Shown: piece after piece, positions 348 through 43,015 of the stretch
How positions within the stretch are numbered: position 1 is the first letter of the stretch
Layout: each line of letters begins with the position of its first letter
Assembly: GCF_947623445.1 (NCBI RefSeq)
Contig: NC_135248.1
Coordinates: 2,726,977 to 2,790,976, forward strand
Direction: 5' to 3'
Length of the DNA stretch: 64,000 nt
From: Clavelina lepadiformis
Taxonomy: Eukaryota
Program-made: the position numbers and the translations under genes
The notes under the pieces: generated by a model
Told to the model about the DNA's origin: nothing
Databases searched by the model: none
What the model saw: the letters and a program-made list of their open reading frames with translations, nothing else

Positions 348-3300
348 CTGAAATTATAATCTGACAATGAAGTGACAATGCCTTCTAGGACTTTTAGGCA
401 GGTTTACGAAGCTGAAAGGTTTGATGGTTATTCCAATCGATCTCAAATTGGACTAACGATAAACATTTTTGATTTATTCATATCTCTTAAATATGAGAAA
501 AACTTCATTCCGTCACAGGCAATAGGTAGAAATGTTTGGTACAGCCTTCTACATAAAATTTTCAAATTTGAACAATTTGAGTTGGGAGAAGCCCTTGAAA
601 ATTACTTGCTCATTCGCTGGGGTTTACCTGCACACTTAAATGCCATCTACTGCTCGTTGTCAGGAAGACATCCCTGAATTACATGAGAGGCACTGGGACT
701 CACAATTTTATCAGCTCAAAAAATGCAACGATACAAAAACAATAAAACTAACATTTTACACAAACTTGCAAATAACTGTATACATATAAATCAACATCTC
801 ACAGAACATACCACAAGTGCTCATTGTGATCAACTTCGAAAAGAATCAATCACACCTATAAACTTTAAACTTACAGTGTTATGCTATTGCATTTGCACCT
901 GCATGCACAAAAATAGGTTTTTAGTCTTTCTTTGAAATGTACCTCTTCAGCAAAAAAGCTGCAGATAACATGGAATTAAAAGTTTATTCACAAAACTATA
1001 AGACATGAAAGCATCCAAAGCGATAACACTAGCACAGAATGAAACCAACTATCTGGTGCGGTACATCAAGTGCAATAAGACAGGATTAAAAATGAAAATA
1101 CAAATGCTTTTTTTAAGTTCAGAATTGTATACAAATATGATTTTCTACGATCAATACACTATAAAATATAATAAAATGTACTTCAATAATAAATCTTTTC
1201 AAGTAAAATGTACAAAAATAACATCGAAGAAAAATAATTTTCACATGTATATTATGTACTTTTGATAAAGAAAGGCCGTACCATGAAAGCAGAAACTTAG
1301 CTGAATACGATTAAATACATCTCAATACTATCAAATCAATTTGAAAAGAGAACCCAGGTTTGCCGAAGTGTATTTCAAAATTTTGTAGCCTACATTTAAA
1401 CCAAAATTCATCATTTTTAAAAGTTGACAACTAAGTGAAGGACATGGCTAAATTAAAAAAAAACGTAACATTAATTTCCGAACAACCTGTCTGAATCCAA
1501 CTTTTTGCATTAGACAACAACAAAGTAATTTAATTCACATCTCATTAAACTACATCATACACGACATACAGCATATAGCAGTATTGCCTATTTATTCATT
1601 TTATTTTTGAGAGTGACTAGGCTATTTCACCGAAAAGTAGGTCACCCAGCCCACAGTTAAAGACAGGCGGTTAGTTAGCAAAATCTGAGTTATTTAGGGT
1701 CTTAACTATTTTATAACATTAACGTTAGCTTAACAAAAAACTGTGAAAAAGAGGTTTCAACGCACTATTTTTCCGGTAAAATAGTGGCAGCCTTTATTTT
1801 TCCTCCTAATTGTGGGTCGGACTGCATACTAAGCTATGGCAGTTTTTGCCAAGATTTCCAGGGTGTAAAAGCTAAATTCCGATGTGCATCGTAAGGTAAG
1901 GAAGGATGAATGAATGAATGAATGTAAAACCGTCCTGACTCCTGAATCGCGAACGTAACCGCACAAACTACCGTATTCACGCCCAACCCAAGTATAAATG
2001 AAATACGGTAGACCTAATAAGTAAAAGGCAACCACACGAGCTACAGGTTATTGTGTTCAGGAAAGAGTAGAGGTCGCACTATTTTGCGGAAAATGAGGAA
2101 TTGATTAACGGAGGAGTACAAGTATATATTGGAAATAAATGTTATAATATTGCAATGATTCGATAATTCCCTTCCAAAATATTAAAAATTTCATTAATTC
2201 ACATGTGATCAATCAAGCATGAAATGTAATCAGGCCAGTTCACTTCAATCGCTTGTCAGTAACGCACATGGGGTGCGGTAGTGTTTAGTTAGTTGCTCTG
2301 TTTAAGCATATGCTGTACTAGCTCTTGTTTTGAAATCATCGTAACTTGTTATAAACAGTTGTAACAGTGTGTTTCTATATTCTGCACATTATCGAGGTGT
2401 GAATAAAGTTTAGCATACCCATTCCTGTTTATCGTTGATTGTGACAGCCAAGTGCTTTTTTGGCATCCAACCAACCTTCGCACTGCCTCAATATAAACAT
2501 AAATTAAAGCCAGAGTGTTAAACCGAACTTAAACCTTTTAACGGGATATTTTTGAGAAAACAAACCGGAACTAGGATCTGTATCTGATCCCACACCATGC
2601 CTTGGCTATTGCAGTCGAAGATGCAAAATTCCAAACTGGAGACCAATCTTTCTCGGCAATGACCACCTTGCTAAGTGCGGTAACTTTAGTTACTTACTTT
2701 AACGAACAGTTAATTGAAACGTGTTTCTGATTATTACCAACTATAGCCTGCGGGTTTACTTATTCTAAAATGTGAGAAGCCCTAAACCAAGAAATTGTCA
2801 TCCCTCATAAAATTTCCTGAGTAAAAGCAGCGTTATTATGAGCAGAGCAGCTGAAGAAAATATAAGCGGCAATTTATTCGAAATTTTGATAAATCTCAAA
2901 GTTACGAAACTTGTTGGAATTATTTTAATTTTCATACTCACCTTGTCCGCTAGATAGCGGCAGGACATCGCGTTTATTTGCCGAAAAAGTCATTGTATTT
3001 TTCTCTGTTCCACAATTCGCATTTCGAGGCAGTCGTCTTCAAGATAAAGAAGTGTTGTTATTTTCCAATAAAATAATGTCAAGTTAGACGCAGTCTTGGG
3101 TAAGAGATAGCTCAACATATACAGACCTATAACATAATGTCCTTTGTTGCGCTATAGCAGAGGTCAGGAACCTATGGCTTGCGAGCCAGATCTGGCCCTT
3201 TTCATGATGGCATCTGGCACGCAGATAAATCTAAGCTCGCATTTTTTAGAACGATTGTTACGATAAAAACTTTTCTGTAATTCTAAGTCGCATTAACAGT

Positions 3301-5830
3301 AAGAAGCATGTTATTAATGAGTAAATTCAGACATTTTCCGTTATCTAAAATTGTTGGTTTTGCTGAAAAATGTACACGTTAGTTGCATTGAGTGTTGAAA
3401 AATATTATACGACTCTCACTGAAATAGAATTAAAAATATGTAATTTTCATGGCTCCCTTAGCCAAAAACGTTCTCGACCCTTGCGCTATAGGATAACAAG
3501 AATTGCTTGTGTAACCATATAAAGCTGGGTTTATTACAAAATTTTTCGTTCCATCTCAAAAAACTCTTAAACGGTTCCATCAAAAACCAAACTTGGAAGG
3601 CAAATTATAGTAAGTTGTTATTTTTTGAAACGGCAACTAAATAGATACAGACAATGGTAAAATAATACCCAGTTAATAAAACGTCTACCCTTTAATATTG
3701 TTTCAATTATTGAGTGGTTTTTGTTTAAATTACTTAACACATTTAAATGTCAGGTCATAAGAGTTTCCCCGTATCCTGAGGATTTGTTTTGTCGTAACAG
3801 ACAATCAGATCTTTCGTTGTAATAATGTTTTACGCTGATACTTGACGTCTACTTACGTTTACGCTGGTTGTAATAATGATTCAAGCGACGTGCATTGTAT
3901 GGGTGAAATGGGGTGACTTTACACAGCACAGCAGCAATACGACCGACCGATAGTTATTTCTTAATTGGGCTGTAGATAATCAAAATAGAGATTTTTAAAT
4001 CTTTTTTTAAGTCATCCGCGGAATTTCACCGTTTTAATTGCTTTCCCTTATCTTTTACTTCACAGTTTTTGTATCTATCTCATTCATTACCTTCGTTCGA
4101 GCAGGACGGCTCTTTAATTTTCCATCGCATACATACAGAGTATAATGTATTTTACTTATGGTTTTAGGATACTTTTTATAGGTATATCGCTTTTGTTTTT
4201 TCTAGTTTTCATTTCTGATCGTGTTTTTATTTATTTTAAAAGCCTGATTATGCCTAATTGAATAGACGAAATATGTTTCTGATTTTAACATTGCACAAAT
4301 CTACTCGGGTTTTATTTTCCTTTTACAAAGCCAATGCAGGATTGTCGCCCTCGGTGGTCGTTTGTGTCTCACCGGCCACCGTTGAAATACGTATTAAGTG
4401 TTGATGTAAGCCTTCGTTTTAATATAAAATCAGAACTCTGTCACTTTTACCCATAAATACGGACCGACTGGTCATTATTGCACGTGAACAGCCCATATAA
4501 GGCCGCCCGCAGCGTGTATGCACGTGCGTACCATTTATCTGCTTTGTGTTCTGAATTTACGCACATTAGACTTGATAACGTGTTGGTTTCAGATTCATAT
4601 TTGTTACCAATGACGTGACACGTATTTCAAGCGTAAAAATCCAAAACTTTCGCGTTCCGCACATTCTGGGCAAGGTGGAAAAACGAAGGAATTTTTGGAA
4701 AGGCTTTTAAAAACTTTTGCCCATTCCTTTCTGAACGCAATCTTAAGTAGGCTACGTCACTGATTAAAACGTCTTATATCGAACAAAATTACTTTTTGCT
4801 TCGTGTTGAATAATATAAAGGCCACAAGAACCGAACATAATCACTCTGTGTCCACTATTAGAGATTACTTAGTACGCAAGCACACTGCCTTGTATGGCCT
4901 TTACGCACCTGTGCAGCAAATGAGAAATGCGGTATACAAGCAGAGAATTTGATAAAGCAAATGGTTATTTTACCAGCAAAATGTAACGTTGAAACGAATA
5001 CAGAACTTACGCAACACCAGCTTTGCTTATCAAAAACTTGGTTGATCTCTGCAAAACGCAAAATAGGCGGATTATACGGCGTTATACAAAATTGTTGCAT
5101 GTGGCGTTTTAAAATTGTCCGCTATAATTTGCCAGCTACTGTTCGTATAAATTTGAGAACACAATTTATTTCGTGGCGTGAAAAAGATTTTGCGTTCGCC
5201 CATTTCGGCCGGGTTTGACAAGCGCGCATATTTCAGACCAGGAGTTCCAAAAATATCCCCTCAACGCCCCTGGACACAAAGTTGATTTACAGAGCACAGT
5301 ACAACTGTATCATTACCAGGATATAAAACGATTTAATGCATGCCATTCGAAATTATTCTGTGGGCGCTGGTATAATCGGTCAAAGTACAGTTCATTTTAT
5401 CTTTAATTGAGTGCTAGTTTGAGGTTTTGTAATAACTAATAACACACTTTGAAAACGTTCTCATTGTGTTTATTTTACGACAGGGTTATAATTGCACAGT
5501 TTCTTTTGCTCGAACTACTGTCAATCGCATAATATAAGCACAGTCTTCAAAGACACTGATAATTATATGTAATTAATAGCAGTCAAACCGTGCATTTTAC
5601 GCCAACGTTGAAGCCTATTACACCGGCGTGTAATCCGACTGTTTTCAAGAGAAGTAATGGATAGCTCTTCAATATTTGTCCTTGAGCTACCAGATACAGA
5701 CAGAGTACAGTATTGAAAAATTCTACATTCCACGCGTTGGGCATCTATGTTAGGTTAGCAACCTAAATCGTGATCAAGCACTTAGCAAAGAAGTTGTATA
5801 CAACGTATAAGCAAAGAGTAAGGCAAGAAG

Positions 5831-6811
5831 ATGAACACCACAGATATTATGTCACATTTAGCAACGGCGGATTATAAAACAGAAGATAAGACTTTCTACA
5901 CCTCCAGCGCTATTACTACAATAAAGACTCGGACCAGGATTAACTTTGCTCCAAGCACAAGTACGTCAACGGGAAGTGTGGCAACGAACAATGCTTCTCA
6001 GTTTTGGGCATCAGAAATTTTCTATGGAGGATCCCACGTTCTGCAAGGCATCGTAATTATACTTTTGGTCTTAACCGCTTATCTGGCCTGTGTGACGTCG
6101 TTTTATCTGTACAAGTACCAGCAGCCCAAGCTCAAGCTCTCCAACTTCCTGCTGTGTTTAGCATCGATTTTGCTATTTGCACAGTGCTGCTGGTTCCAGC
6201 CTGAAGTGGTTATTACCTCGTACACTTACCAGTTTTGCATCGCTTACTCAGTCGTAAACATCATTCTGGCAACGGTTGCCAAAACTACCATATACGTTAT
6301 CCTGTGGGTTAGACAGAATTTCATCTACACCAATCCATTGCTGACGCTTGTAGGGGAACACTTCCGCGTAGTTGGAAAGATAGTTCTTTTTGGAATGCTC
6401 ATTTTCGCCGCTTTCCAGTTGGGGTCACTGATTGCAATCGTGCCAAAGGCTGTTCCGGGTGGATGCATTTTACCAAAACTCTTTGGATGTTTGATCGTAA
6501 TTACACCTTTGACGTTTTGCATTTCTTCTGTTTTCCAAGTTGCCCTCCTGCTGTTAACACTGTACCCTGTTTTGAAGCACATTCGCAAACACAGTAAAAG
6601 CTCCATCGGTGCGCACCTGCGTCCGGTAGCTATCAGGCTATGCGTGTGTACAGGGATTTGCGTTGCCACAGACACGTTGTTTTTAGTTGGCACCAGGATA
6701 GCTTCATGGCGCGCTCCTATTAACTTTATACCGGTATGCTATGCCTTTGACATTGCCATTCACATCGCAGTAACTTTGTGTTCGTTTGTTGATTATCAAC
6801 GTCGCCTTTAG
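5831..6811 (+). CDS. Intronless 326-aa ORF encoding a predicted seven-transmembrane membrane protein (orphan GPCR-like)
   Basis: A 981-nt uninterrupted ATG-initiated ORF in ~34% GC DNA is very unlikely by chance. The translation has seven hydrophobic segments of 20-25 aa (e.g. IVIILLVLTAYLACVTSFYLY, FLLCLASILLFAQCCWF, IVLFGMLIFAAFQLGSLIAIV, LIVITPLTFCISSVFQVALLLLTLY). It has an N-terminal N-glycosylation-type site (NAS) and basic residues in the predicted loops. No canonical DRY or NPxxY motif was found, so the GPCR family assignment is open. Confidence 0.45.
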   Translation: MNTTDIMSHLATADYKTEDKTFYTSSAITTIKTRTRINFAPSTSTSTGSVATNNASQFWASEIFYGGSHVLQGIVIILLVLTAYLACVTSFYLYKYQQPKLKLSNFLLCLASILLFAQCCWFQPEVVITSYTYQFCIAYSVVNIILATVAKTTIYVILWVRQNFIYTNPLLTLVGEHFRVVGKIVLFGMLIFAAFQLGSLIAIVPKAVPGGCILPKLFGCLIVITPLTFCISSVFQVALLLLTLYPVLKHIRKHSKSSIGAHLRPVAIRLCVCTGICVATDTLFLVGTRIASWRAPINFIPVCYAFDIAIHIAVTLCSFVDYQRRL

Positions 6812-11546: not shown

Positions 11547-12662
11547 GTGGGTGATGATGGAATGTTGTTAAAATAATTTCCATATGTTAGAACAGGGGTT
11601 CTCAACCTTTTTTAAACACGACCCAATTTTTCTTCATTTTGGATGCAAGCAACCCAACATTTTGCTATACCATAAAATAGAAGGACTGCAATTAACTGTG
11701 ATTCCTCAAACAGACAGAAAATGTTACTTAATCACGCACAATCGTAATACACGATACCATGGCATGATATGTTGCAAGCAAAACATTAAATACTAATACA
11801 TAATAACAACATATTCGTCCAGCTTGCTCAAGCAAGACTTTCTTGAATGCACCACCCGTTCAAGAAAAGGTGCATTGTTTCTTTGGTGTTTCGTCATAAA
11901 ACATACTATGACACAACAAATGCTCATTAAAAACGTCACAGATTTTTTAACAATGGTTATGGCTTTGCTGGTTGATGACTAAGAACTAAAAAATTTGACA
12001 ACTAATAAACATTTTTGTGCAGTTTCAAGAAAGCTACGTCAAAAACAAAACCAAGTAGGCTTGTAAGAAATGCCCGGTGACCCATAGGTTGAGGACTCAT
12101 GCATTAGAAGTTTGGTAATTATAATTGTTGTTATAATTACTGGTGAACAGTTCCATACTTAGGAAAGACCACAAATAACGAAAAAAAACGGATTAAACAA
12201 CGCAATGTGAGCAGAAAACACTTGAAGACTAGCCCCACAACTGAGGCTTGGGCAGTGGTATAGTTAACAGGTTGTGTTCACGTAAAGATTTTATTCATTC
12301 AGTTTTAGCATGATTATTCGATTTTTAACATTATCTAAGCAATTAATAACACTGTCAAGTGTAATTTATATGTCCTGTACCACATGACATTTTATATCCA
12401 GCTGTGCACTTAACGTATTGTGTTGGAAAATTTTTCGTTATTCCTTAACCTACTCACCCCACGTTATCACCTATTTACTACACTTTAAAGAAATTTTTTT
12501 TATATTGCTGGTATGAAAAGTTTACCAATGTTATAGATCACATGCAATTGCACAGTTGTTTTTTGACCAAGTTTAATATTAATACATTCAAGATTTGTGA
12601 TGTTCATTTTGTATTGACTGAAAAACTACTTATTTCACTGCTTTTTATTAAAATTTTGCCAG

Positions 12663-21465: not shown

Positions 21466-22677
21466 TCTACTGCTAATTTTAATCTAATAAACCGAAAACT
21501 GGAACTTTTGCTCCGTCATTCTTTTATCTCATTTATAAATCAGCGCCAGTTGTGCAGCTCCGCTTCATCGTCTAGCGGACATTTTCTTTAGCAAATACGA
21601 TGTATATAGACGCTGTCATTCTGATGCTCGAATAATTCGTCGTAATTGGTTTTCATTTAGAGTTAGCAAGAGAAACTCGGAAACCATTTCGTTGTTCCGC
21701 TCAAACCAGTTTCAAACGTTTCAGTTGAATCGTAATTCACAACAATATACTATACTATTGTGTAGGGCTGTGGCATTGTTAAGCAATAGGAGAGCTTGTC
21801 GCAAGTTTTCTAGCAAGAATCTGGCACCTTTTTGCTTCGAGTCAACCTTGGAGCAAGTTTCGTGCGTTTATTTAATCAGCTGAGGAATTTGCGCGAGATT
21901 TCTCGAATCTTCACTGCGCGTGTTCGTTCCATAATTTCATTCTTTTACCTCGTGCAGTTGAGGTGGTTGGTTGGTGGTTATGAGTAGTTTAGCATTTACA
22001 ATACAATGGATGCAATACAATGGATTTACAATAAAGCGGAGTTCAGTTTGGTGTGACTGGTTTGAAGTAACAACTTGTCTATGCTGATTTGAAACGTCAC
22101 TGCTTGGCTTAAGGCCCATATTTGTTGGCCGATTTGTCTGACTTGTTTAATAACGATAAGTTTTTGGTCAGGACTGCAAGTTGTATTTTGTTTGATGCTG
22201 AAACACAGCTCGCGCTTGTTGAGTTTTGTATTTGTTTGACCTTTGTTGTACACTTCCATGTTCTTGTTGTTAACCTTTGTTCCTGCTTTGTTGCAACTGC
22301 TCTCTGCGCGCGCTTTAGCGTCTTGGTCTCGTTCAGGGCCGGATTAAGACGAAACTGGGCCTGATGCTGCAGCGCAAAAACAGGCCTATTTTTTCTAGGC
22401 ATTGGTACATATGCATTCGACACTCTGACTCCACCGTACACGCGTAATCAGACCGACCAAAGAGCCTTTATTGCTTTCGACGCAGTCAGCCAAATTTTAA
22501 TGAACATGAACAATAATAACGACGTGTTATCGTAAAAACTCGAGAGTAACATCAGGCTATGTAACACCAACACAATTCAATACCAATATTGCCTGAAAAG
22601 CGGAGTTAATGAAGAAAAGGCTAATCCAGATCAACTTAACGTTGGCATATTGTCAATGCTGCGCTAGTGCTGCTTAC

Positions 22678-25197
22678 TTATACTACTGTTTTTCGAGCCT
22701 TAGCAAGCGCGAAATCTTCGATCATGTCAGTGCAGTCAAGGCTGCTCAGCACCTCATGTTCAATGCTCATAAGCGCCAGCATGTTTAGCCTTTCCTCCCT
22801 CATCGAAGACCGCAGCTCTCCTTTGACTATTCCCAGTTTTGAGAAGCTCCGCTCGCCGGAGGCATTAGACACCATCAAGCACAGATAGATGCGCAAAGCA
22901 ATCTCGACGTTTGGAAATGTTTGAGAAAGGTTCAACGACGACAAAAGCTTGTACATGGTAAGCTCTGCTGACTCGTTCACACTCACCGATTTCTGGGTGC
23001 GCATAAATGCAGCAAACTGTATGAGCTCAGCCACCAGCGTGTCTTCCAAGTCATCTGGATACGAGGAAACGAGATTTTGAGCTTTATTCTCGATCTGCTT
23101 TATGCTCAATGACGTTAGCTCCGAAAGAAATCCGAATGTTGTAGATATATCCTCATACGCCTTCATTCGCTTTTCCAGTTCAGCTAACAGTCTGTCGATC
23201 ATGACCAGATATATATGGGTTTTGAATGTTTCCCTAGGGGTGAGGTTTTCTTCGTTTGCAGCTCCTTCATCAGGCATTCGCTTTCGCTTACGGCCTCGAC
23301 GTTCTTCAGCCTTGTATTCGCCGTGAGGAACCTTTTCGATCGCCATCTGCTCATACACGTCAAATCTGTCCCGTGCAAATTGAATCGTGTCGACCAGTGA
23401 TGCCAATAAACTAGTTGCCGTATTCAGACTGACTGTAGGGTCTTGGAGGCTAATGCTCGTACTGTTGAGACGGCATAGGATATCGTTCCAGGCAGTCGCC
23501 ATAACTGCAGTCTCAAGTTCGTCCATCCTGCGCGAAAATCCGTCGGCCTGGTTTCTCGTATCGGCCTTCTGCTCCTTATCTGCCGCAAGCTCATCCAGGA
23601 CTTCTTGAATGCTCTTCCACCCTTCTACTAGCGCTTTGACAGCATCTGCACGTTCACACCATCGGGTTCCAGACAAACCTTTGAGCGTTAATGTGCAGCG
23701 ATTCTTCAGTTTCTGCCAGCGATATGTCGATTCAGACAGGAAAACGTATAGTCCATTGACAAAATGAAAAAACCTGGTACAGCCAGCGCAGCTATTAACA
23801 GCCTGGTCTCCTACCAGGTTTAAACTGTGGTTGCAGCATGGAATAAAAGCAGCATATTTACATTCTCGCTTCACAATTGCCTGGACACCGTTGTACCGTC
23901 CTGACATGTTTGACGCATTGTCATACGACTGGCCTCTGCAGTTAGTAACATCCAAGCCATTTTCCTTCAGAAAGTTCAGAAGTATGCTAGCCATGTGCGT
24001 AGCGGTGTGTCTCATCATAGGCAAGAATGTCAGGAACCGTTCAACTGGACCCAACGGCAGAACATATCGAATAACAATCGTTAGCTGGTCGAGGTGTGAT
24101 ACGTCAGGTGTAGAGTCAATCGAGACAGAGAAATACTTCGCCTTCTTGGCTTCTTTCAGGATGGTGTCCTGCACCTTTTGTCCCATGAGCTGCACCAGCT
24201 CCTCGCAAATTGTGGATGACAAATAAGAAATGTGACCTTTCCCGCAGTTCGCATATTTTCTAATATGGCTAGCCAGCAGAGTATCGTACTCCGCCAACAA
24301 CTCAATGATGCCAAGGTAGTTACCATTATGAGGGGAACCTATGATCTCATCCGCGCCCCTTATAGCAAGGCCACGCTTAGCTAGGAATATCAGAACGTCG
24401 ATGAGCCGCTTTACAATCTGGCGCCAGTAACACCGCTCTTCCTCGACCTGTTTAGCGGCTAGGTAGTCAACACGACCGGCCTCCCTCTGTCGGCTCGCAA
24501 AAGACAACATAGCCTTGCGATGACCATCGCTGCTTTCATGCATTTTTATTCTGGATTCGCCTGTCCTCCAATTGTCGAAACCGCCGGATACGAACTTGGT
24601 TGCTTGAACAGCATTACCACCGAACAACTTGCATGCAAAGCAGAACACCTTCCCGGTCGAAGGCGAGTAGCACAACCATTGTCTATAGGATTTTTCACCA
24701 TTGAGTGGATGCGTACGCACGAAGAAGGTCTTAGTGCATCGACGTTGGAATGATTCACCTAGGTATTGTCTGGCGCTCTCTTCAAACATCGATTCAGTGT
24801 GTTGGCAGTGTTTTGAACCTTTCTTGGCCCAATATTCTCGAGTGTCAGCGTTGATTTTACCCCACTGTCCTAAATCATTGGTGATATCCTCCAGCGTTTG
24901 CGCCAGTGCTTCGCCAGTGATAGCGTCTCCTTTCACCTCTGCTCTCTCCGCTGAACTTTCCCGCTCTTTATCCTCTCTTTCCTCATCAGGTTCATCTTGC
25001 TTGGCCTGGTCTTCAGGAGCGCTCGAATTCGCAATCGCATCCGACGCAGGCAATTGAGACGAAGCTGCTCGCATTCCAAAGTATGAACTCAGTTTTGGAA
25101 TTTTCGCCAGAAGCTTTTCTTGTTCTGCTGCTTCTTTCCTTTTCTTTTTCGCTTTATCCCATCCACTGAGTTGAGACGCCATAGCAAGCGTGCACAA
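22678..25197 (-). CDS. hAT transposase (ZMYM1-like: TTF-type zinc finger + DUF4371-like core + hAT C-terminal dimerisation domain), 839 aa, uninterrupted
   Basis: A single 2.5-kb intronless ORF. The TTF-type zinc finger region reads CTKTFFVRTHPLNGEKSYRQWLCYSPSTGKVFCFACKLFGG. The C-terminus (ALRIYLCLMVSNASGERSFSKLGIVKGELRSSMREERLNMLALMSIEHE) matches the hAT dimerisation domain consensus. Plus-strand ORFs inside it (23102..25057) are antisense artefacts. Confidence 0.85.
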   Translation of the reverse strand: MCTLAMASQLSGWDKAKKKRKEAAEQEKLLAKIPKLSSYFGMRAASSQLPASDAIANSSAPEDQAKQDEPDEEREDKERESSAERAEVKGDAITGEALAQTLEDITNDLGQWGKINADTREYWAKKGSKHCQHTESMFEESARQYLGESFQRRCTKTFFVRTHPLNGEKSYRQWLCYSPSTGKVFCFACKLFGGNAVQATKFVSGGFDNWRTGESRIKMHESSDGHRKAMLSFASRQREAGRVDYLAAKQVEEERCYWRQIVKRLIDVLIFLAKRGLAIRGADEIIGSPHNGNYLGIIELLAEYDTLLASHIRKYANCGKGHISYLSSTICEELVQLMGQKVQDTILKEAKKAKYFSVSIDSTPDVSHLDQLTIVIRYVLPLGPVERFLTFLPMMRHTATHMASILLNFLKENGLDVTNCRGQSYDNASNMSGRYNGVQAIVKRECKYAAFIPCCNHSLNLVGDQAVNSCAGCTRFFHFVNGLYVFLSESTYRWQKLKNRCTLTLKGLSGTRWCERADAVKALVEGWKSIQEVLDELAADKEQKADTRNQADGFSRRMDELETAVMATAWNDILCRLNSTSISLQDPTVSLNTATSLLASLVDTIQFARDRFDVYEQMAIEKVPHGEYKAEERRGRKRKRMPDEGAANEENLTPRETFKTHIYLVMIDRLLAELEKRMKAYEDISTTFGFLSELTSLSIKQIENKAQNLVSSYPDDLEDTLVAELIQFAAFMRTQKSVSVNESAELTMYKLLSSLNLSQTFPNVEIALRIYLCLMVSNASGERSFSKLGIVKGELRSSMREERLNMLALMSIEHEVLSSLDCTDMIEDFALAKARKTVV

Positions 25198-26209
25198 AAC
25201 GCAGCTAAATTTGTAAATTGTGGAACCGTAAAATTTATCGCATTAACTTGAAATCTTCCGTTACAATAAACACAACGCCGTATATTTAGCCTACGTCACA
25301 GTGCAAAAAAAAAACATTAGCAATTGTCTTAGAATTAAGGCAATCGCTAGCGTCCAAGTGAACCCCAATGCTTTCCATCATTTTTTGTTATAAACTGACA
25401 CTGGTTTCCATCATTTTTTGTTGTGAACCGGCAGTTGTTTGCACGGTGTTAGCTTGTGAATCGGCAATGAAACAACATTGAACTCAACAATAATGATTGC
25501 TAACTCTTTTCCCAACCATAATGAGTACTAATCTTACTGCCTTAACCTAATCTATTCCTAAGGTTTAGCCTAACTCAGTGGTTCTCAACCGCCGGTCCGC
25601 GAAGTACCGTATCTTACTTTCTGCCAAGCTAATTTTAATCTGGAATCATAAGCATTGCAAAGTTGATACTTCCTGTAAAACTCATTTTACGCTTGGCCGA
25701 TTTACAGCAGTAGGCTAAAACTGGCATAGCCTATCTCTCCTTCGTTGATACAGCAGAACTGTTTAATAATAAAGGTTAACCTTCCGATGACCTAGATTTT
25801 GTGCCGTTTATGATTGTTTCGTCATAAACTGCGTCTAGCTTTCAAAAAGTTTTGTAATACAAGGTCATTCTTCACTTTTCAGATGCTGCAATAGCTTGTC
25901 CTGTTAAACTACAGAAGGATTAATATGGAATCAACGAACCAACAAGTGTATTTTAACAAGAAGGAAAAAACTAAGACTTCTGAAACAAATAATTCTCAAA
26001 ATGGAAATGAACCAAGTATCAGTAGGTGCAAATGTAAACTACGAAAAGGGCATATGCAGATAAGTTGAGTGTCACAGAGGGAAGTAAGAAACGAAAAGGG
26101 GAATTTGTCAGGCAATACAATAAAAATACTTGGAGCTTGGTTTTACAATAGTTCCGGGTAGTGAACAATCGTCACGGCCCTAATGTTTGGTGTGCTCCCA
26201 AATTCTGCC

Positions 26210-26500
26210 AAATGACGTTATGAAACCTTCTAAAGTTGTTCGTCACTTTCATTCAAAGCACAACAATCTTGAAGGCAAGCCACTTGAATATTTTGGACGA
26301 ATATTCTCTGATATGAACGATTAAAAAAAGCAAATGAAAAGATGACGACTACCGAAAAATCCTTTCTTCATGAATCCTATCTAGTTTCTCTACGAATAGT
26401 TAAAACCAAAAAAAGCATACACGATTGGGGAAGAGTTAATAAAGCCGTGCATCTTATCTGCGGCTGAAGTAATGAAGGGCCCTGAAACAGCTCGAAAAGT
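26210..26500 (+). pseudogene. Frameshifted fragment of a second hAT-type transposase (GTF2IRD2/ZBED5/Charlie-like N-terminal region)
   Basis: Plus-strand translation gives NDVMKPSKVVRHFHSKHNNLEGKPLEYF in one frame, then EKSFLHESYLVSLRIVKTKK, and after a +1 shift HTIGEELIKPCILSAAEVMKGPETARKVL. These are the characteristic MKPSKL.RH..TKH / ESY.VS..IAK..KPHTIGE.LI.P motifs of this family. Stops and frameshifts mean it is not coding. Confidence 0.5.
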
Positions 26501-28369
26501 GTTATAATTTTTCATCTTAAATAAGTAGTCTATGCCAAAATCTTGCTTTATCTTACGTGCCTAGGCGTAACACTGTGCCTAGGCGTGCGAAAGTCGGACT
26601 ACAAATTTCATAATAAGAATTATTTGTGGGTTAATTAAGCAAAGGAAAACTGTTCAGCGTCCGGAAAATTCACGTCTGTTTTCGTCTGGGCCTATTTCAG
26701 GAATGGGCCTAATGCTGCAGCATCAATAGCATCCACCTTAATCCTGCACTGGTCTCGTTGTTGCGTTTCTGCGCTTTGGCGTTTGTACAGTTTGTGTTAA
26801 AGAGTATTTTTGGAGCCTGTAAATTGGTGATTTTTTTGGATTTTTTATAGAGTTTTTTTTTGTTGGCGTTTATTGATTTATTTTTTCCTGGCCATGCAGT
26901 GACCTTCAGTTTAAATATGTTCAGTTTCTCTGGATTCTGTTCAAAAGTTGAGCTCGAGATATCTGGAATCTGGTGTTTCAGGAGAATTTGTACCCCCAAA
27001 GCTGATCTGAAATCTTCAAATCTGAACATTTCTTGCTGTGAACTGAACATGTCAAGATTTGTAGCAGAACTACAGTATACGTAGGCAGCATAGAAACTTA
27101 GAAATCTGCTTTGGCTTTGTTCAGTTCAGTAAAATTGTGTTGGGGGTGTATTTTAAGCTTTATTTAACATCACGGTCACGTTGCCAAAAGTTCCCCTTTT
27201 TGAGATGACGAAAATGGTGACTTAGGAATTTTTCTATTTCATAAAAGTTCCAGGGCCTTAATAATTACCAACAATACAATTATGATGTCATTGGAGCCAA
27301 AGTTTGATAATGATTGTGTCCTCCCCATCGCCCCTTTGTGGGTCGTCACCATCCTACGATAATTTATAGTTCTGGTGAGTTCGTTTTATTGCTGAAAATA
27401 AAACTTAAATTTTTTCATACTCGTTTCCCAAGATATTTCTTCCATCAGCTGAAGCTTCTACTTTGAAGTTCCAAGTCTTCTAGTCACTTTCATCTACTTC
27501 CGTGCAACCAGTAACTAATAGTGGTTACGCCAATAGTAAGTGGTAATGTAATGTCTTTCTTGGGCCCGTATTTAATTCTCACCATATTAAATATCGATTT
27601 TTCCCGAGAATCGTGTTGATATTTGTCTATTTTCATTCCTGGTTTTAATCTCTTGCAGGTCATTTCCCTGATAGTTTCTCGTATAAACCAAACATTTTCA
27701 CGTTTCACGTTTCCCAAACATTGTGACATCTTACACAAGCTTCAAGACGTACATATACAAGACGTACAAGACTTCAAAACAGTAATGAAATTATTAGACA
27801 CATAGCTACGATTAAAAGCTACTTCAAAGTTTTAGCAAGTGTATTCGATCGTCAACTAATAATAACAATATTGTTTCAGACTCTTTCAACATTCAATTCC
27901 ACTTCAATAACTTCGATAGTGTTTGTTCAATATCAAGAAGGCCTCGGCCTCTATAGCGGCCTCGACCCAGCTATAGCTCGCCATCGGTAGGTCTCGTTTT
28001 AGCAACTAGTTTCCTGAATTAAACTAATGAATTGCTGGTGTCAAGCTATTAATCATGGGTGATGGTTTGGCTGTGTAAGCATGGGTTGACCCTTCTGTTA
28101 CTTTTAAGGTCTAATGGAAGTCCAACCACCAATCAACCAACCAACCAACCAAAGCAATATTTAGTGGCAGAGCATAATAACGTTAGGAGCGCGCTGGTAA
28201 CCAACGAGGGACGATGAGAAGAAGTAGCGATGAGACAAACACGGAAGAGAGAGGAAGCTTCCGACGACAAGTTGCCGGCGCGCCGGTGCATCGTAGGTTA
28301 CGGTTCAGGCGGCATTACCATCGCACATTGCGCCCCTGGTGTAGAAATGTTAAACCATGTAGTGCAGCA

Positions 28370-30175
28370 AAAAGGGACATTATGTTATCAGACTAATATA
28401 ACTTCTATAAGAATTCATTAAATTCACCTCTATGAAAGACAGGGACATTTCGTATTTTTGTATTTTTGTGTGTTTCTACTTCCTTCCTTCCTTCTCTTTT
28501 TCTAATATTTTTGTCGTCGGTAGAGGGCGTAAATGCAAATGCGATGGTAATTTTTTTTCAGTTAGGGTATATCCCAAATGTACCTGAAGTAGTAAAGTTT
28601 AGAAGATCCGAGGTAAATTTTCAAATATCTTGTTTGCTTAGGCCCTTTATATGTTGCATAGTTTACAATGATATTATTTTTGTTACAATAATTTTGCTAA
28701 TAATTGTGGGTGTTAACATAATAGCAATAATAATATGGAGAAGATTAACTATTGCTTATTTTAATACCTGTTACATTTACATTTTACCATAAATGCAAAG
28801 ATAATTTTAAACATTTTTTCAATAAAACTGTTTTGCGATTTAACCAAAGGACAGTTATCTAAAACCAGTAACAAATTTACTGGGATTACCTTATATAGGC
28901 CTACAACAAGAGAGTGGAGGTGCTGGAGTCGATGGCATAATGACTTTCTCTTTCTCTTAAAATTGATGGGATTGTTGTTGTGTATTGTTTTATCGCTTGT
29001 CTTATTCTCTCATAGTCTGAATCATTGAGTTCTTCTGTCTTATATTGTTGTGTGTTGACTGTTTTATCGTCGGGAGGGTGCAGGACCCGATGCAGCACTG
29101 GTTTCGCCAAGCCCAAAGCGATCCAGTGTCCCGGCCCAAATTAAGAACATTTTGCCCTCGCGCCCCTATACTAGCCTGCATTCTCATAACCCTATCCTAG
29201 GGGGACAAAGTGCCGTGTAGAATAGGGTAGGGACCTCCGACATTTCACGCCTCCCCTAGATGGCGGCACTCAATATAACAAGTAGGTCCGACGGGGCATT
29301 AAGCCACAGACACAAACAATTCGAGGCTTATGGAGTTTGTTGTGGGTCCTCAGATAAAATAGTGCTCCTAGGGTGTAGCTCGCTTAGGTTATCCAGCACT
29401 ATTTTATTTCAATCTTGCGAATAAACTTTTAGGGTTTTTGTTTTCGGAACCACACAATTCTATTTAGTTATTCCCATTGTGTCCATCGACTCCAGTGCAG
29501 TTATATTTCTATTTTTTATATATACTGTATCTTATTTTAGGCATAAGACTCTATACTTTCCTTTATTCTGGCACTCCAACCTAATGCAGCGGTTGGATTG
29601 GTGCCTTAGCGCGCAACACAACCTTAAAAAGATAATTCACATACTGCATGGCCGGTTTGAGTTACCGATGTTGGTTTCAACTATTTTTTTTCAGGTTATC
29701 AAGTAAAGTATTACAAAGTATCCTAGGTAAAGTATCCTAGTAAAACAATCCTAGGTTGACCGCACTTCGGTCTGGTTGACTAAATTTTCAGTCAAATATA
29801 ATTAAAACAACAACAATAGGCCACAACATTTAACGCGACCATATGCCTTCTCTTATTGTCTTGTATAAAATTCTCACACCACACCGCGCGATACCGGCTA
29901 GATCCCTCCAACATTTCTTAGATGAGGTAGGGTCATGACTTGTTTTGTTTTTGCCTTTTCCTCCATAGAAAACTTTTAAAAAATTTCTTCTTGGGTCCGC
30001 AAATGCTTGTCTGCCCAACCCCTTTGTTTCATTTTGCACGATTGCGGCGGTTATTTACAGGTTACAGGTAATTATATGAAATGAAACAACAATCAACGGT
30101 TGGGCTGATTCCCCCTGGCTTTAAGAGAAGGAGGTCGCATCGTAACGTACCAAATCCTATACTAAAAAAGTAGAA
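28370..30175. repeat. Interspersed repeat family, long copy (A, ~1.8 kb), carrying a ~1.25-kb internal segment absent from copy B
   Basis: 28372-28650 aligns with 42493-42740 and 29890-30175 aligns with 42740-43015. Shared blocks include ttgtcgtcggtagagggcgt(a/c)aa(t/a)gcaaatgcgatg and tagatgaggtagggtcatga..ttgccttttcctccatagaaaa..gcgattgcggcggtta..caggttacaggtaatta.atgaaatgaaac. The insert is flanked by similar ~22-bp sequences (ggccctttatatgttgcatag / gatccctccaacatttcttag). Confidence 0.55.
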
Positions 30176-37625: not shown

Positions 37626-40600
37626 GAGCTTAAACCATAGATATCCTATAAAACACTAGATCGCTCAACTCGCCTCTGGAATTGAAGCCAAATTGAAACT
37701 TTGCGAATCCGCCATTAAGGGACCCAGTCAGTCAGTCCCAACAGTGGTGCTGAATTGTGATGGAGTTGTATCGACAATTGTCTTGTTTCCAGTACGGTAT
37801 ATTTGTATAAATAGCCTAGTTCTAACGTTATACAGAACTTATACGGGCTAGGACTCTTTATACATCGTAGGATACGCCGATGCCGTATGTAGCCTGGACT
37901 ACCGTATATTTTGAAAATTCATAGCTTTAGCACGATATTATTTTAGAGATAGGCTACTGGAATAATCGGAGATGGGCATTGATACAGTACCTTCGTACAT
38001 TACTTTGTAATACCATGTTCCGAATCCCAGACAGGAATGTGTTACATTGTAAGCTATAGGCCTACCGTCAATACCGGATTTCTTTTAGTCGTCTCAACAG
38101 CTAGGCTATTCGCCATCGGTACTTTTATAGTGATAGTTTCAAGATTTTTAGAGATTTATGCCTAGGCTAGTTTTGGTTCTATGCCAGTACTTTCAAAGTC
38201 AAAGTATTGACTGCCCACATCTGGAAATATGTTCAGTTAACTGTAGTCTATAGGCCTAGTTTTCTATTGTGCCACACTTTAACTACAAATAAGAATCTGA
38301 TTTGTTGGACCCTATTGTAAAACGTGTAAAATTTGGTAAAAAAGGACATAAACATTTAGCCAAATTTATTTACATGTACAATTTTACAAAACAGAAGAGA
38401 TAAAACAAAACCATTCACTTATCACTATACTACATACATTACTATGTCAATGACTGACATTTGAAATTAAACAGTAACGAGTCATCCACTTGTCATTACT
38501 GATGGCTGAATAGTACAAGTTTGTTAAATTTTTTTCGTATCTTTTTGCAGGTAATTTCTTCATTGTACTCTTTTCCAAGGTGGTAAAGTCGAATTTTGCA
38601 GTATGCTTTTGAAACTAACTTTATAAGGTCAAAGATATGGTTGTTGGTGACACTTGTGTCTAACATATGATATTGAAGATTGCAGAATGCTAAGGATAGG
38701 TTGATATTAGCCAGAACAGATGTTGCAATACCTTCTGATACTCCTTTTTCTAAACCGACATAACAAATTCAAGGTATATATGATAATTATGCAACTAAGT
38801 TGTGTTTACATATATATCAGATAAATATAATAATCATCAGACAAATATAAATTATTTTGCTACATTTTACCTTGGGGAAGTTTTCCTCTTGTAGTTTTAA
38901 GAAGACGTTGAAACTGTTTTTCAGTTTCCTCGCAAACTACTACTACACTTTCGGAAGGTTTAAATAATTTGCCTTTATCTTTCATTTGCAGGAAGTCAGA
39001 CACTGGAAAATTGGTTGTTGAACCAAGAGCTTGACTACAGTGACTGCACAACATTTGCTTATCAACCATTTTGCTAACATAGCCAGCTACGTATGAAATG
39101 GCAGCTTTTTTGTATTCAGACAAACCAAGAATGTTTGGAATTTCACTGAGGCTATGATCTTCGTCGACTTCTACATCCCGTCCAAGTAGGTCATATTTTC
39201 TTATAATATGAGCACCTGATTCTGTCAGCTGAGGGTTACTAGTTGAAGCACCATTGAATATATGCAAAATTTCAATTGGTAACTTTTGTTCACAGTTACC
39301 AACTCCACCTTTAATATCACTTCTTAGAAGTAAGCGCTTATAAGCTGCTGTAAACTGCTGGCTTGTCGGGTTGTTGTTGAAACCTCCTGCTGACCTTATG
39401 GCTCCAAAAAACAACTCAAGGTGGTCTTGGCTAAGCTTGTAAGTTAAGATATATCTTAGTTGAGATTGATTTTTCCCAACTAAATCTTCAAACAACCCTT
39501 TTATACTTCTTATTGCCATCAAGAATCCCAGAAAGCCTGTTTTCCGTCTTGTTTTAAGCATTTGTACCCCAGCAGTGTCCTTCAACTTGAGAATGTAATC
39601 AAAAGAAAAATCAAGAAATGGCCTCCAGCTGGACTCATTGCTTCTTTTCAAAGGTGATTTGAATCCTTTAGCACATAGCACGCCGAACTTTGGAACTGTT
39701 GTAGTTTCAATGTGTTGCTGCAGTACTCAATGGCATCAGCTACACTTGCACTTATTGCTTGAGCTGCCAAGTTAACCTTCATTTTTTGTTGTTTCCAGTT
39801 TATATGGGCCAACTTAAGTTTGTTTGCAAGGCGTAACCCTTCTTCTTTTTGAAGTTTCTGCAGCTGAACCAAGTATTCCCATTTCACTTTCTTTCCTTCA
39901 AAATCTACAAGTATGCCACCTTCACCAAAGGTATTGCGTATAAGTTTAAGCATATGGCACACATCTAACAACATATATATTTTGGAATTTTCATCTGCAG
40001 GATGGTTAAAATAAGTTTGGAAGTTATCTATGTCTAAAGACAAACCAGGTTCATTCATCATAGCAAGATGACTGGAAGGAACTCACAGGAACTCACAGAA
40101 GAAACTACTACTCCTATATCATGGAGCCGCCCAATACAAACATTTACAAGGTTAGCTTTCTCTTTACCAGTCAGACTGTCAGTAAAAAAATAGCCACAAG
40201 GAATTTTCCATGAATTGTTTAACGAAACAACCATTAGCACTAAAGCATCTTTTGCAACAGGTGAGGAATCATCTGCTGGCATTTCCACACCAATATCAAC
40301 AAAACCTCGGAAACGATGGCCATCCCAAGAAACATGCTTCTTAATGGCCATTTCATCCAGCATTAAAGCACAAATTACCTGCTTGTTTTTCTTCTTCAAC
40401 TCTGGCTGAAAGTACTCTGAATGCAGGTTCTGTAAAACCAGGTTCAGCCGACACTTTGGTGTACCATTTTCTAATGGTTGATTGTGCTGGCAAAGCTAAG
40501 TTGAAGGTTTTTCTGACATACTCATATGCCTTGGAAGAGTAAAACTGAAGGGTTAGTGCAAATGCCTTCAATTCCGTGGAATACTTGCAACCTTTAGAGG

Positions 40601-42407
40601 AATGCAGTTGTTTTGCTGCTTTTTTCATGACATGCAGTGGCACACCTGTAAATGATGCCTTCAACACTTCTTCACAATTTGAAGATAGGAGTTGATTTTT
40701 ATGCAAACATTGAATTAAAGTTTTCATTGAAACTATTTTCTGTTTAAATATGCGTGACTTTTGCTGACTGAGTTTTAAATTTTTTCGAATTGCTGCAATT
40801 TGTTTGCTTCGTGACTGGATTTTCGTATTCAATTTAGTGAGTGAATTGCTTATGCTGTATGTATGGTCAGACTTTACTTTATCACAGGAGCTTCTTTTAA
40901 CAAGGCAATCACTTGTTTTATCTTTACTACCGGAACTGCATTGTAACTGCAAACCAGTTTTCATATTTCGTGTATATGGTTTCTTCCTTTCATGACCAGC
41001 CTGCAGTGAATCAATTCAAAGTATATATATTATATTATATATTATACTGCCAGTATATATATTAGTATATTATATCAGTGCCTGTATACTTGCCAGTATG
41101 TTATAGCCAATAATTTCCAATAATTAGTCTTGAGTCTGATGGAAATCTGTTGTACATATACTTGGTACTAAATATATGTTTTAATAAAAATATGTCATCG
41201 AATGCAGCTGAGACTGTTCGGGTGCACTTTTAGCTGAGGTAAGTTATTAGTTGAACGCCATGCCAATACACAACAGCTGCAATGTTAATGAGATGGTCAG
41301 AACTTACAGCTCATTAAATTGAACGACTGGTGCAAAGACACGATTAATTAATAATTCCTGTTGCACAAAAACACCTGCCGGTGCTACTACACTATTGCTC
41401 TTTACAACTCAGTTTTCAGCAACTAACCTGTAGCCTATATTCCTGGCATATAAAGGCTGTGGTTATCGCACCGCTGTAGTTGTTTAACATCTGCAGGTTT
41501 TAAAGTTTCATATGGGGGCCATTTTGCTGCTTGTGGTCTTGTTTTAGCAAGGTATAACAACATTAGCACCACTCTTTTCGAGGAATGTCCTGTCAATGGG
41601 CCACTGAGATATTTAATAAATAGACGACTTTGGAAAAAAATTGATCACTTATCAACTACTATGTTAGTAGTAAAAGAGTAGTTACTTTTGGCTACGTAGT
41701 TACTTTTGGCTGGATAGTAGTTACTTTTCATTATTGGTGATGGTTATGGTGAAGAGAGTTAGTTAGCTTGAAAAGGCACAATACAGCCAATATGCCTCTA
41801 AGAAGCATGAAGTTGAATAAGAGATACAGTTAGACTATAGACCGGAAACATATAGACATAAGTAGCATATTTAACACCTTAAGCAATGAGAAAAGAGCTT
41901 TCAGTTACAGGACTTTATGTCAGTGCCAGTATAGGCTAGGCTACGCTACAGTTTACATACGGTACCGGTATTAACGTTAAACCAAGAAAAACATTAGTTG
42001 TAGGTAATTATTATTATGCACAAAAAATGCTTACGCATGGAAGGTTCTTGGATGACAAATTTCCTTTCTTGTCTCATCATCCGAACTCCCTTCACTGGCA
42101 CTTCTTTCCATTAACTTATCGCTTACTGTAGCGCTATTAACTCTCTTTTTCCTTTTTCCACAACCGTAAGCACAGCATTGAGTTCCCCTTTTATCCATGT
42201 TTTATATAGATTACAAATTGACGAAGAAATCTCACAATTTAACGTTGGACCTAACAGCTTAAAAGCCTTATAAAATCGTGTTCAAAGCCCAGTTTGGGTC
42301 CCTTACTGTTCCCGCCAAATCTGTTCAATTGGCTTCATTTTTGGTTGGTCGAAAACAATAAGAAGAGCGATCTAGTGTTTTATAGGATATCTATGGCTTA
42401 AACCCGC
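37626..42407 (-). mobile_element. P-element/THAP9-like DNA transposon (~4.8 kb) bounded by ~110-bp terminal inverted repeats, with a frameshifted transposase
   Basis: 37629-37745 (cttaaaccatagatatcctataaaacactagatcgctc...) is the reverse complement of 42290-42404 (...gagcgatctagtgttttataggatatctatggcttaaac). Between them lies a P-transposase-like coding region split across four overlapping ORFs. Confidence 0.6.
38860..40964 (-). pseudogene. P-element (THAP9-type) transposase coding region, interrupted by at least three frameshifts
   Basis: Consecutive minus-strand ORFs 40353..40964, 40058..40399, 39648..40061 and 38860..39681 carry P-transposase family motifs: KYSTELKAFALTLQFYSSKAYEYVRKTFNLALPAQSTIRKW, LMLDEMAIKKHVSWDG..FRGFVDIG, WKIPCGYFF, and DVCHMLKLIRN (the D..H..K..RN motif). 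A 10-bp tandem duplication ggaactcaca|ggaactcaca at 40063-40082 sits exactly at one ORF junction. Confidence 0.65.
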
Positions 42408-42489: not shown

Positions 42490-43015
42490 TTTTGTCGTAC
42501 CGAAGGGACATTCTGCTATCGGACTAAATAGCTTCTATAAACGTAAGTTTTGTATTTTTGTGTGTTTTTCTACTTCTTTTTTCTTTTCTTTTATATTGTT
42601 TGTCGTCGGTAGAGGGCGTCAAAGCAAATGCGATGCTAAATTTGTTTCAGGTACCCCGGGTATACATCAGTTGTACCTGAGGTGACATTTGGAAGATCCG
42701 AGGCGAACTATCGAATAGTTTGAACAGGCTTGGCCCCTCTAACATTTGCTAGATGAGGTAGGGTCATGAGTTGTTGTTTTGTTTTTGCCTTTTCCTCCAT
42801 AGAAAAGATGTAAGAAATTTCTTCTTGGGTCCCCAAATGCTTGTCTGCCCAACTTCGTTGTTTCATTTTTGCGCGATTGCGGCGGTTAGTGACAGGTTAC
42901 AGGTAATTACATGAAATGAAACGATGGTCAACGGTTGGGCGGAATCCCCCCGGCTTTAAGAGAAGGCGGTCTCAGGGAAGGTTTAGCTGTACCCTACCAA
43001 ATCTTTAAGGCAACT
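42490..43015. repeat. Interspersed repeat family, short internally deleted copy (B, ~0.5 kb)
   Basis: Collinear with both ends of copy A (28370-30175) but lacking the 28650-29890 segment. Confidence 0.55.

Follow-up and report, generated by a model that had tools for sequence, protein, structure and literature searches.

Is a long, uninterrupted reading frame that carries the name of a host gene really part of the host's own gene set, or does it belong to a transposon that has spread only recently? The question is raised by a 64,000-nucleotide stretch of the genome of the light-bulb sea squirt Clavelina lepadiformis, an ascidian tunicate (NCBI RefSeq assembly GCF_947623445.1, contig NC_135248.1, positions 2,726,977 to 2,790,976). 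This whole stretch is called the window here, and coordinates refer to it unless another contig is named. An earlier note on its sequence had described an apparently intact hAT transposase gene and had offered two readings of it, namely a young element or a domesticated gene resembling ZMYM1. The present analysis assigns a probability of about 0.9 to the interpretation that the sequence 22334..26751 represents one copy of a hAT transposon that is young, autonomous, and of the cut-and-paste type. The first of the two readings is thus upheld, whereas the second is contradicted by the additional copies, the empty insertion site and the ends of the element.

The full-length element measures 4418 bp and carries its gene on the minus strand. 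The octamer GTCTCGTT is found directly outside both ends, at 22326..22333 on the left and at 26752..26759 on the right, as a direct repeat with 8/8 positions identical. Because this octamer adjoins both ends, the element is delimited as 22334..26751 with an 8-bp target-site duplication. The terminal inverted repeats are 15 bp long, match at 13/15 positions, and start with CAG, which is typical of hAT elements. The 5' repeat (26737..26751, minus strand) reads CAGTGCAGGATTAAG in gene orientation, and the plus strand holds its reverse complement. The 3' repeat (22334..22348, minus strand) reads CAGGGCCGGATTAAG on the plus strand, and in gene orientation the element ends with ...CTTAATCCGGCCCTG. 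The ends were first spotted by eye, as CAG...CTG termini beside an 8-bp direct repeat, and were then confirmed independently. Generic repeat finding over 21500-27500 returned only short and weak pairs, including the 15-nt inverted pair 22334-22348 / 26737-26751 (87%) and an 18-nt direct pair 22356-22373 / 26704-26721 (94%). The degenerate inverted-repeat pattern has no further match in 64 kb, with 0.2 matches expected by chance. A chance origin of the inverted repeats was considered and rejected.

The boundaries of 22310-26790 given in the earlier note have to be replaced by 22334..26751, as indicated by the inverted repeats, the duplication, and a second copy of the element. Alignment of the termini gives 15-bp repeats and a perfect 8-bp duplication, and the similarity to the second copy halts exactly there. 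The ends, which had been called degenerate, are ordinary short hAT repeats. Mirrored sequence blocks had also been described near both ends. These blocks are present at the places given for them, but they do not form one degenerate inverted repeat. The 'ggtctcgtt' block corresponds to the target-site duplication and 'ggattaag' to a part of the inverted repeat, while the 'gggcctgatgctgcagc' block is subterminal and has the same orientation at both ends instead of being mirrored. The sequence GGATTAAG falls within the true 15-bp terminal inverted repeat.

The insertion is also visible from a site without it. A paralogous empty site (L006) was found on the C. lepadiformis scaffold CAUIVY010000183.1, which aligns to window 27221..26755 and then straight on to 22328..22052. 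This scaffold is continuous where the window holds 4418 bp and one octamer copy, and the target is present in it once. The insertion target is itself a repeated sequence in the C. lepadiformis genome. In addition, a 4960-bp contig from the Logan assembly of run ERR771006 (L001) encodes the exact protein of the window (P0121). It aligns over exactly 26751..22334 at 99.86% identity, with 6 differences in 4418 bp and unrelated flanks. Three of its differences from the window copy fall in the coding sequence, and all of these are synonymous.

The annotated proteins of the same genome extend this picture. The top protein match to the transposase is 100% identical and is a C. lepadiformis 'zinc finger MYM-type protein 1-like'. 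A protein cluster at 90% identity comprises 17 sequences, two of which have two RefSeq accessions each, and its members are spread over approximately 8-10 different chromosome-scale sequences. The search for additional near-identical copies that the earlier note had suggested was therefore answered by this 17-member cluster together with L001. The C. lepadiformis genome has a size of 210 Mb and 9 chromosomes (PMC10884593). Eight different full-length sequences (seven of 834 aa and one of 836 aa) occur in the cluster, encoded on 7 chromosome-scale sequences. The six other 834-aa sequences lie 1-2 residues from the window protein each, and because the differences of the other copies are all private, the window copy equals the implied family consensus. 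Two of the 11 private substitutions are at conserved sites, namely C189R at a nearly invariant zinc-finger cysteine and G292D at a glycine that is invariant in 44 homologues. This share fits neutral decay after insertion and not selection on each copy. Near-identical dispersed copies are the pattern of a very recent transposition burst, not of a domesticated gene. Self-BLAST found no second copy of the region within the 64-kb window. A second subfamily, represented by P0002 at 85% identity, is present in the same genome.

The transposase gene itself is open throughout. The minus-strand open reading frame (ORF) 22678..25197 contains 839 codons without a stop when counted from a TTG, in agreement with the intact 2.5-kb ORF of the earlier note. 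The coding sequence from the first ATG, at 25182, encodes 834 aa (22678..25182, minus strand), and the frame is open up to the TTG at 25197; residues are numbered here by the 839 codons. The 834-aa sequence is identical to RefSeq XP_076799835.1/XP_076825073.1 of C. lepadiformis. Local G+C is 44-46% over the transposase gene versus approximately 36-40% around it. An AATAAA motif at 22467..22472 (minus strand), about 205 nt past the stop codon, matches the polyadenylation signal and may be used as such.

Three hallmark regions of hAT transposases had been claimed for this protein. Two of them are confirmed by Pfam: DUF4371 at aa 202-437 (E=4e-17), and Dimer_Tnp_hAT (PF05699) at aa 756-815 (E=2e-9, 37.6 bits vs a cut-off of 21.4). 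The third, a TTF-type zinc finger, is suggested by its CCHH residues and by the names of the source sequences, whereas its Pfam match is sub-threshold. The residues C186, C189, H220, and H226 are nearly invariant among 44 homologues, which were aligned at 40-83% identity to the query, and UniRef names for members of the transposase cluster read 'TTF-type domain-containing'. In the same alignment, D361 and D365 (SIDSTPD), D426 (SYDNASNMSG), C454 and H457 (CCNHSLNL), W513 (TRW), and E782 (SGERSFS) are invariant in 44/44 homologues. By motif and alignment, they are predicted to be the hAT catalytic D, D, and E, the CxxH, and the conserved tryptophan. The predicted catalytic residues are encoded on the minus strand at 24115-24117 (D361), 23920-23922 (D426), and 22852-22854 (E782), and we take the D/D/E/W residues to be the equivalents of D180/D248/E572/W319 in Hermes.

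Alignment to the Hermes sequence pairs the RW and ERxFS motifs with those of the transposase. A sequence search of the PDB with the transposase gave only sub-threshold Hermes matches (E=0.26). An AlphaFold2 model built from the homologue alignment has a mean pLDDT of 78.8, with values below 50 at residues 36-97, which form a disordered acidic N-terminal stretch. Foldseek against the PDB was significant only for 12 Hermes transposase chains (E=7e-10 to 4e-8, approximately 540-580 aligned columns), and the next match had E=0.1. Comparison with an 86%-identical relative from the TARA/ENA data gives a dN/dS of 0.20 (dS 0.44, dN 0.086), lowest across the zinc-finger and catalytic parts. Given this ratio against a diverged relative, the transposase lineage is under purifying selection, which is expected for a lineage that persists by transposition.

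A second hAT transposase fragment on the plus strand had been noticed at 26210-26500, together with the suggestion of a composite or nested structure. The fragment is real, but its extent is 25576..26557 (plus strand). It is a nested copy of a second hAT family (FAM200/ZBED5/GTF2IRD2-like, 'Buster-like') that is internally deleted, truncated at its 3' end, and opposite in orientation to the host element. At approximately 26050-26500, the plus strand encodes the N-terminal portion of a different hAT transposase, interrupted by frameshifts and stops. For a stitched reading of 139 aa, 41 homologous proteins were found, the best at 77% identity (E=4e-63). Among these matches are a Styela clava 'ZMYM6-like' protein and several proteins with FAM200-ZBED5 RNase-like or DUF4371 domains, and the passenger homologues carry the FAM200-ZBED5 and FAM200-GTF2IRD2 Pfam domains. 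On the stitched fragment, Pfam gave only a sub-threshold Spin-doc zinc-finger match, and its identity was settled by the protein search.

The DNA around two passenger homologues (L004 and L005) was compared with the window. Window 25576-26498 corresponds to L004 3595-4594 (79%), and window 26500-26557 corresponds to L004 6034-6091. Since the correspondence jumps from 4594 to 6034, the window passenger has lost approximately 1.4 kb of its interior. The L004 copy has the inverted repeats CAGTGGTTCCCAACC... / ...GGTTGGAAACCACTG and TA-centred flanking octamers (ttcTAtac / tctTAtac). The window passenger has kept its left inverted repeat CAGTGGTTCTCAACC at 25576 and has lost the right one.

The passenger fragment is also present in L001, the sole other copy with readable DNA, and is missing from L127, a related full-length element of 3377 bp. 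For this reason the structure is nested and not composite: an ancestor of the element received a broken Buster-like element, along with approximately 300 bp, in its 5' non-coding region, and at least the two copies with readable DNA have carried this insert ever since. A global alignment between the window element and L127 was uninformative for the central part of their 5' regions, and BLAST blocks were used. By these blocks, the 5' region of L127 matches the window element only at element positions 1-99, 129-185, and 1476-1551. The proximal 5' non-coding region occupies 25183..25575 (minus strand), of which 25277-25575 is missing from L127, and it includes a 33-bp tandem duplication at 25366-25431.

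The passenger is accompanied by two minor observations. At window 26557-26586, the 12-bp sequence GTGCCTAGGCGT forms a direct repeat with its two copies 18 bp apart; the repeat is located exactly where the Buster-like similarity stops and the right end of the passenger is missing, and it could be a deletion or repair scar. At window 11593-11607, CAGGGGTTCTCAACC forms a second hAT-type terminal motif that is nearly identical to the inverted repeat of the passenger; no similarity was found beyond this motif, and no partner repeat was searched for.

The RefSeq name 'zinc finger MYM-type protein 1-like' suggests a domesticated ZMYM1-like host gene that arose from a hAT transposase, has a cellular function, and is no longer mobile. 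The intact frame and the dN/dS of 0.20 against the diverged relative would agree with such a gene, but purifying selection between lineages is equally expected for an active transposon lineage. The protein has the same DUF4371 and hAT-dimerisation core as human ZMYM1 and domesticated hAT-derived genes, and this shared core is the source of the RefSeq name. In contrast to ZMYM1 genes, Pfam detected no MYM or zf-FCS domains in the window protein, which is part of a multi-copy, young mobile element. A ZMYM1-type host gene would be single-copy, would have no transposon ends, and would carry MYM-type (zf-FCS) zinc fingers. In functional terms, the window protein does not belong to the ZMYM1 gene family. 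Moreover, domestication is opposed by the precise inverted repeats, the perfect 8-bp duplication, and the empty paralogous site, as well as by the many copies of ~99.9% identity on different chromosome-scale sequences. Similarity between copies also spans the non-coding ends and halts at the inverted repeats, and individual copies are substituted at invariant or nearly invariant residues. Because of the second copy at 99.86%, the empty site, and at least eight full-length protein copies that lie on different chromosome-scale sequences and differ from the window protein by 0-2 residues, domestication is rejected as very improbable. It is hardly credible that the copies reflect segmental duplication, or redundancy of assembly or haplotypes, instead of transposition. 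Two of the cluster proteins come from a separate GenBank annotation (CAK accessions), and L001 is without a matching target-site duplication, both of which would suit such an origin. However, the window and L001 are similar only up to the last base of the inverted repeats and have unrelated flanks, and the 64-kb window has no second copy or flank repeat. Furthermore, the RefSeq copies are located on eight different chromosome-scale sequences, and miniature derivatives of the element carry different perfect 8-bp duplications at different sites.

The element may also be a real hAT transposon that looks intact but cannot move itself, owing to a disrupted promoter, host silencing, or mobilisation only in trans. 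This explanation is unlikely, although it retains some weight. The Buster-like fragment and approximately 300 bp part the 5' end from the ATG, and a motif scan found no TATA-like motif upstream of the transposase ATG. On the other hand, the nested DNA is also present in the 99.86%-identical L001; the family therefore amplified after acquiring the insert, and the insert is compatible with mobilisation. In addition, the window protein is the family consensus, and all its catalytic residues are intact. A young, autonomous transposon remains the preferred interpretation, and several points weigh against it. The ATG is separated from the 5' end by approximately 1.3 kb of foreign DNA, which could interfere with the native promoter. 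Present-day mobility of this copy would follow from its youth and intactness, as judged from sequence, and the genome-wide copy number is drawn from annotated proteins. The sole zinc-finger match in Pfam (zf-C17orf113, aa 173-232) is below threshold, with 20.6 bits vs 29.5. Finally, the octamers that flank L001, TTCCTACG (277-284) and GTTGTCAC (4703-4710), mismatch and give no target-site duplication. The probable cause, although unproven, is that a short-read contig has joined the flanks of different copies, and recombination between copies may be an alternative.

The regions just inside the ends carry candidate sites for the transposase. The subterminal block TGGGCCTRATGCTGCAGC occurs at 22356-22373 and 26704-26721 in the same orientation at both ends, where chance would give 0.03 matches. 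Each end has two 10-mers of the form AWYAGGCCYR within its last ~65 nt, and all four have one orientation. The 3' subterminal region (22356..22390, minus strand) contains them at 22356-22365 and 22381-22390, with the palindrome GCTGCAGC at 22366-22373. In the 5' subterminal region (26687..26721, minus strand), the 10-mers are ATTAGGCCCA (26704-26713) and AATAGGCCCA (26687-26696), and GCTGCAGC is located at 26714-26721. The palindrome adjoins the end-proximal 10-mer at each end. These 10-mers and palindromes are candidate transposase-binding sites.

The biochemistry and structures of Hermes provide the steps by which such an element would move. By analogy with Hermes and other hAT transposases, the putative N-terminal CCHH zinc finger and the adjacent region would bind the AWYAGGCCYR repeats near both ends, and the C-terminal hAT domain would drive oligomerisation and the pairing of the two ends. 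The D361/D426/E782 site would then nick each end, and the flanking DNA would be sealed as a hairpin, which would free the element. Subsequently, the 3'-OH ends of the element would attack a new target at positions 8 bp from each other, after which repair would yield the 8-bp duplication.

The element is a new member of the well-known hAT type and not a new kind of element. It shows the 8-bp duplication, short inverted repeats, a DDE core, a dimerisation domain, and dispersed copies that end at the repeats. hAT elements have a length of 2.5-5 kb, inverted repeats of 10-25 bp, and 8-bp duplications (PMC3942097). Proteins with DUF4371 are hAT transposases that consist of a TTF zinc finger, an RNase-H-like domain, and a hAT dimerisation domain (PMC3985635). 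The window element resembles the Tip group (Tip100 of Ipomoea and BuT2 of Drosophila) in its 8-bp duplication, CAG-starting repeats, and size within 2.5-5 kb. It also shares with this group the DUF4371/RNase-H-like core and the C-terminal hAT dimerisation domain, and it carries a putative zinc finger. Miniature non-autonomous derivatives exist for both BuT2 and the window element, but BuT2 has five exons, whereas the coding sequence of the window element is a single exon. The window element further differs from the Tip group in its tunicate host and in the nested hAT fragment in its 5' region. DUF4371 also occurs in BuT2 of the Tip group (PMC3942097), and the domain is not exclusive to that group. 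The subgroup is less certain, since the likeness to the Tip group is drawn from DUF4371 and not from a phylogeny.

Hermes of the housefly (PDB 2bw3, 4d1q, 6dww, 8edg) is the only significant structural match. Both proteins have an RNase-H core that is split by a helical insertion domain, and both elements have short subterminal repeats, which are candidate binding sites in the window element. However, the sequence identity is 12-15%, the window protein is approximately 220 aa longer, and Hermes has an N-terminal BED finger in place of the CCHH TTF-like finger. The passenger 25576..26557 belongs to the Buster elements (TcBuster, ZBED5/FAM200/GTF2IRD2-related), and the fuller copy in L004 has a TA-centred 8-bp duplication. 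In contrast, a central TA at positions 4-5 occurs in 0/14 perfect duplications of the main family, a small sample of 13 different metagenomic sites and the window copy. A duplication with a central TA reportedly marks Buster elements (Arensburger et al. 2011, as cited in PMC3942097). By this criterion, and within the small sample, the main element does not behave as a Buster element. Similar to Tol2 of medaka, the window element is an intact hAT copy of the autonomous type that is accompanied by near-identical copies dispersed in the genome of a chordate; this is the signature by which Tol2 was recognized as active. Tol2 belongs to the Ac-like group, whereas the window transposase is of the DUF4371 type.

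Relatives of the element extend beyond C. lepadiformis. Public metagenome contigs were scanned with 32 nt of the 5' subterminal region (element positions 8-39), and at least 120 contigs from JGI metagenomes (L007-L126) contain the same 65-nt 5' end as the element. In all matching contigs listed, the similarity starts at element position 1 or a few bases from it. Both ends are present in 39 of the contigs listed, at a distance of 176-1278 bp, and these are miniature non-autonomous derivatives; examples are L047 1721-1896, L075 3320-4086, and L087 1074-2283. The 8-bp flanks of the 39 miniatures agree at 8/8 positions in 14, at 7/8 in 7, and at 6/8 in 5, and the perfect duplications differ from site to site. 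Calculated column by column from 112 5' ends and 39 3' ends, conservation within the termini is mostly 80-99% and reaches background exactly one base outside. The last ~40 nt of the 3' end are 80-99% conserved in the 39 miniature copies. The first 65 nt of the 5' end, of which positions 8-39 served as the search key, are ~70-99% conserved except for two variable positions, and conservation decays thereafter.

The contigs with miniatures have 45.7% G+C and contain metazoan exons for a kanadaptin-type FHA domain, a frizzled-type cysteine-rich domain, and TRIM-NHL-like proteins. They have nothing in common with the 64-kb window except the element. One locus with a miniature copy was found in three samples, each time with an identical duplication, which points to a shared animal host. 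Some of the JGI sample series are presumably metagenomes of whole animals with their symbionts, such as gutless marine worms. Full-length relatives with ~85% coding nucleotide identity are L002/L003 (ENA ERZ17098432, TARA SAMEA2731664), and L127 210-3586 from JGI sample 3300018083 is a further full-length relative with 85% coding identity. The 3' end and inverted repeat of L002/L003 were searched for and not found. L002 has a tandem array of ~55-bp units just past the gene (3113-3438), and a different insert, foldback-like and with inverted arms at ~240-420 and ~700-880, is found in the 5' region of L003. The proposal of current activity of the family in a chordate, combined with horizontal movement between distantly related animals, is tentative, and its chances are put at somewhat below even. 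Should the miniature-bearing contigs stem from a host outside the tunicates, horizontal transfer would be the simplest explanation. If this proposal is true and the hosts belong to other phyla, it would represent cross-phylum transfer of a still-intact element.

With this locus, a hAT element that is fully delimited and apparently functional is available from a tunicate, a member of the sister group of vertebrates. Its ends, candidate binding repeats, predicted catalytic residues, and a miniature family are defined here, and the copy is possibly still mobile. The understanding of hAT elements is unchanged by it. Intact animal hAT elements such as Tol2 and TcBuster are the raw material for transgenesis tools, and the window element is a candidate tool. 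Tip100 was recently used in medaka as a transgenesis tool (PMC12511174). Moreover, the RefSeq 'ZMYM1-like' label on approximately 17 or more C. lepadiformis gene models denotes transposon copies and not host genes, and such mislabelled models bear on counts of genes and on analyses of orthology. With its near-identical ends in unrelated metagenomes, the family is a reasonable candidate for the study of horizontal transfer.

The surroundings of the insertion contain further repeats and genes. When the flanks are joined without the element (26709-27050 and 22109-22333, minus strand), they form one 171-codon ORF that is rich in K, N, and T. This ORF is 68% and 76% identical to the C. lepadiformis 'unnamed protein products' P0176 and P0177, and no Pfam match was found for it. 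The insertion thus took place either in another repeated sequence or in a lineage-specific gene family. Window 28160-28618 and 42549-42707 match 1152-1637 of the scaffold with the empty site (L006) at 75-78% identity; thus, another dispersed repeat family adjoins the insertion site and recurs 14 kb away. A 326-aa, ATG-initiated ORF is present at 5831-6811 (plus strand), with DUF4293 as its best Pfam match, below threshold (E=0.007). P-element/THAP9-type transposase ORFs occur at 38860-39681 and 40353-40964 (minus strand), with matches to the Tnp_P_element HTH (E=2e-25) and the TNP-like RNase H C-terminal domain (E=3e-21). The pair probably represents a single P-like transposase that is split or has decayed, or else an intron-containing gene. 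Finally, an FCS-type zinc finger (E=1e-6) is combined with a C-terminal SAM domain (E=3e-9) in a 311-aa ORF at 50500-51435 (minus strand). Polycomb proteins of the Polyhomeotic/SCM/L3MBTL type have this architecture, and the ORF is probably an exon of a host gene.

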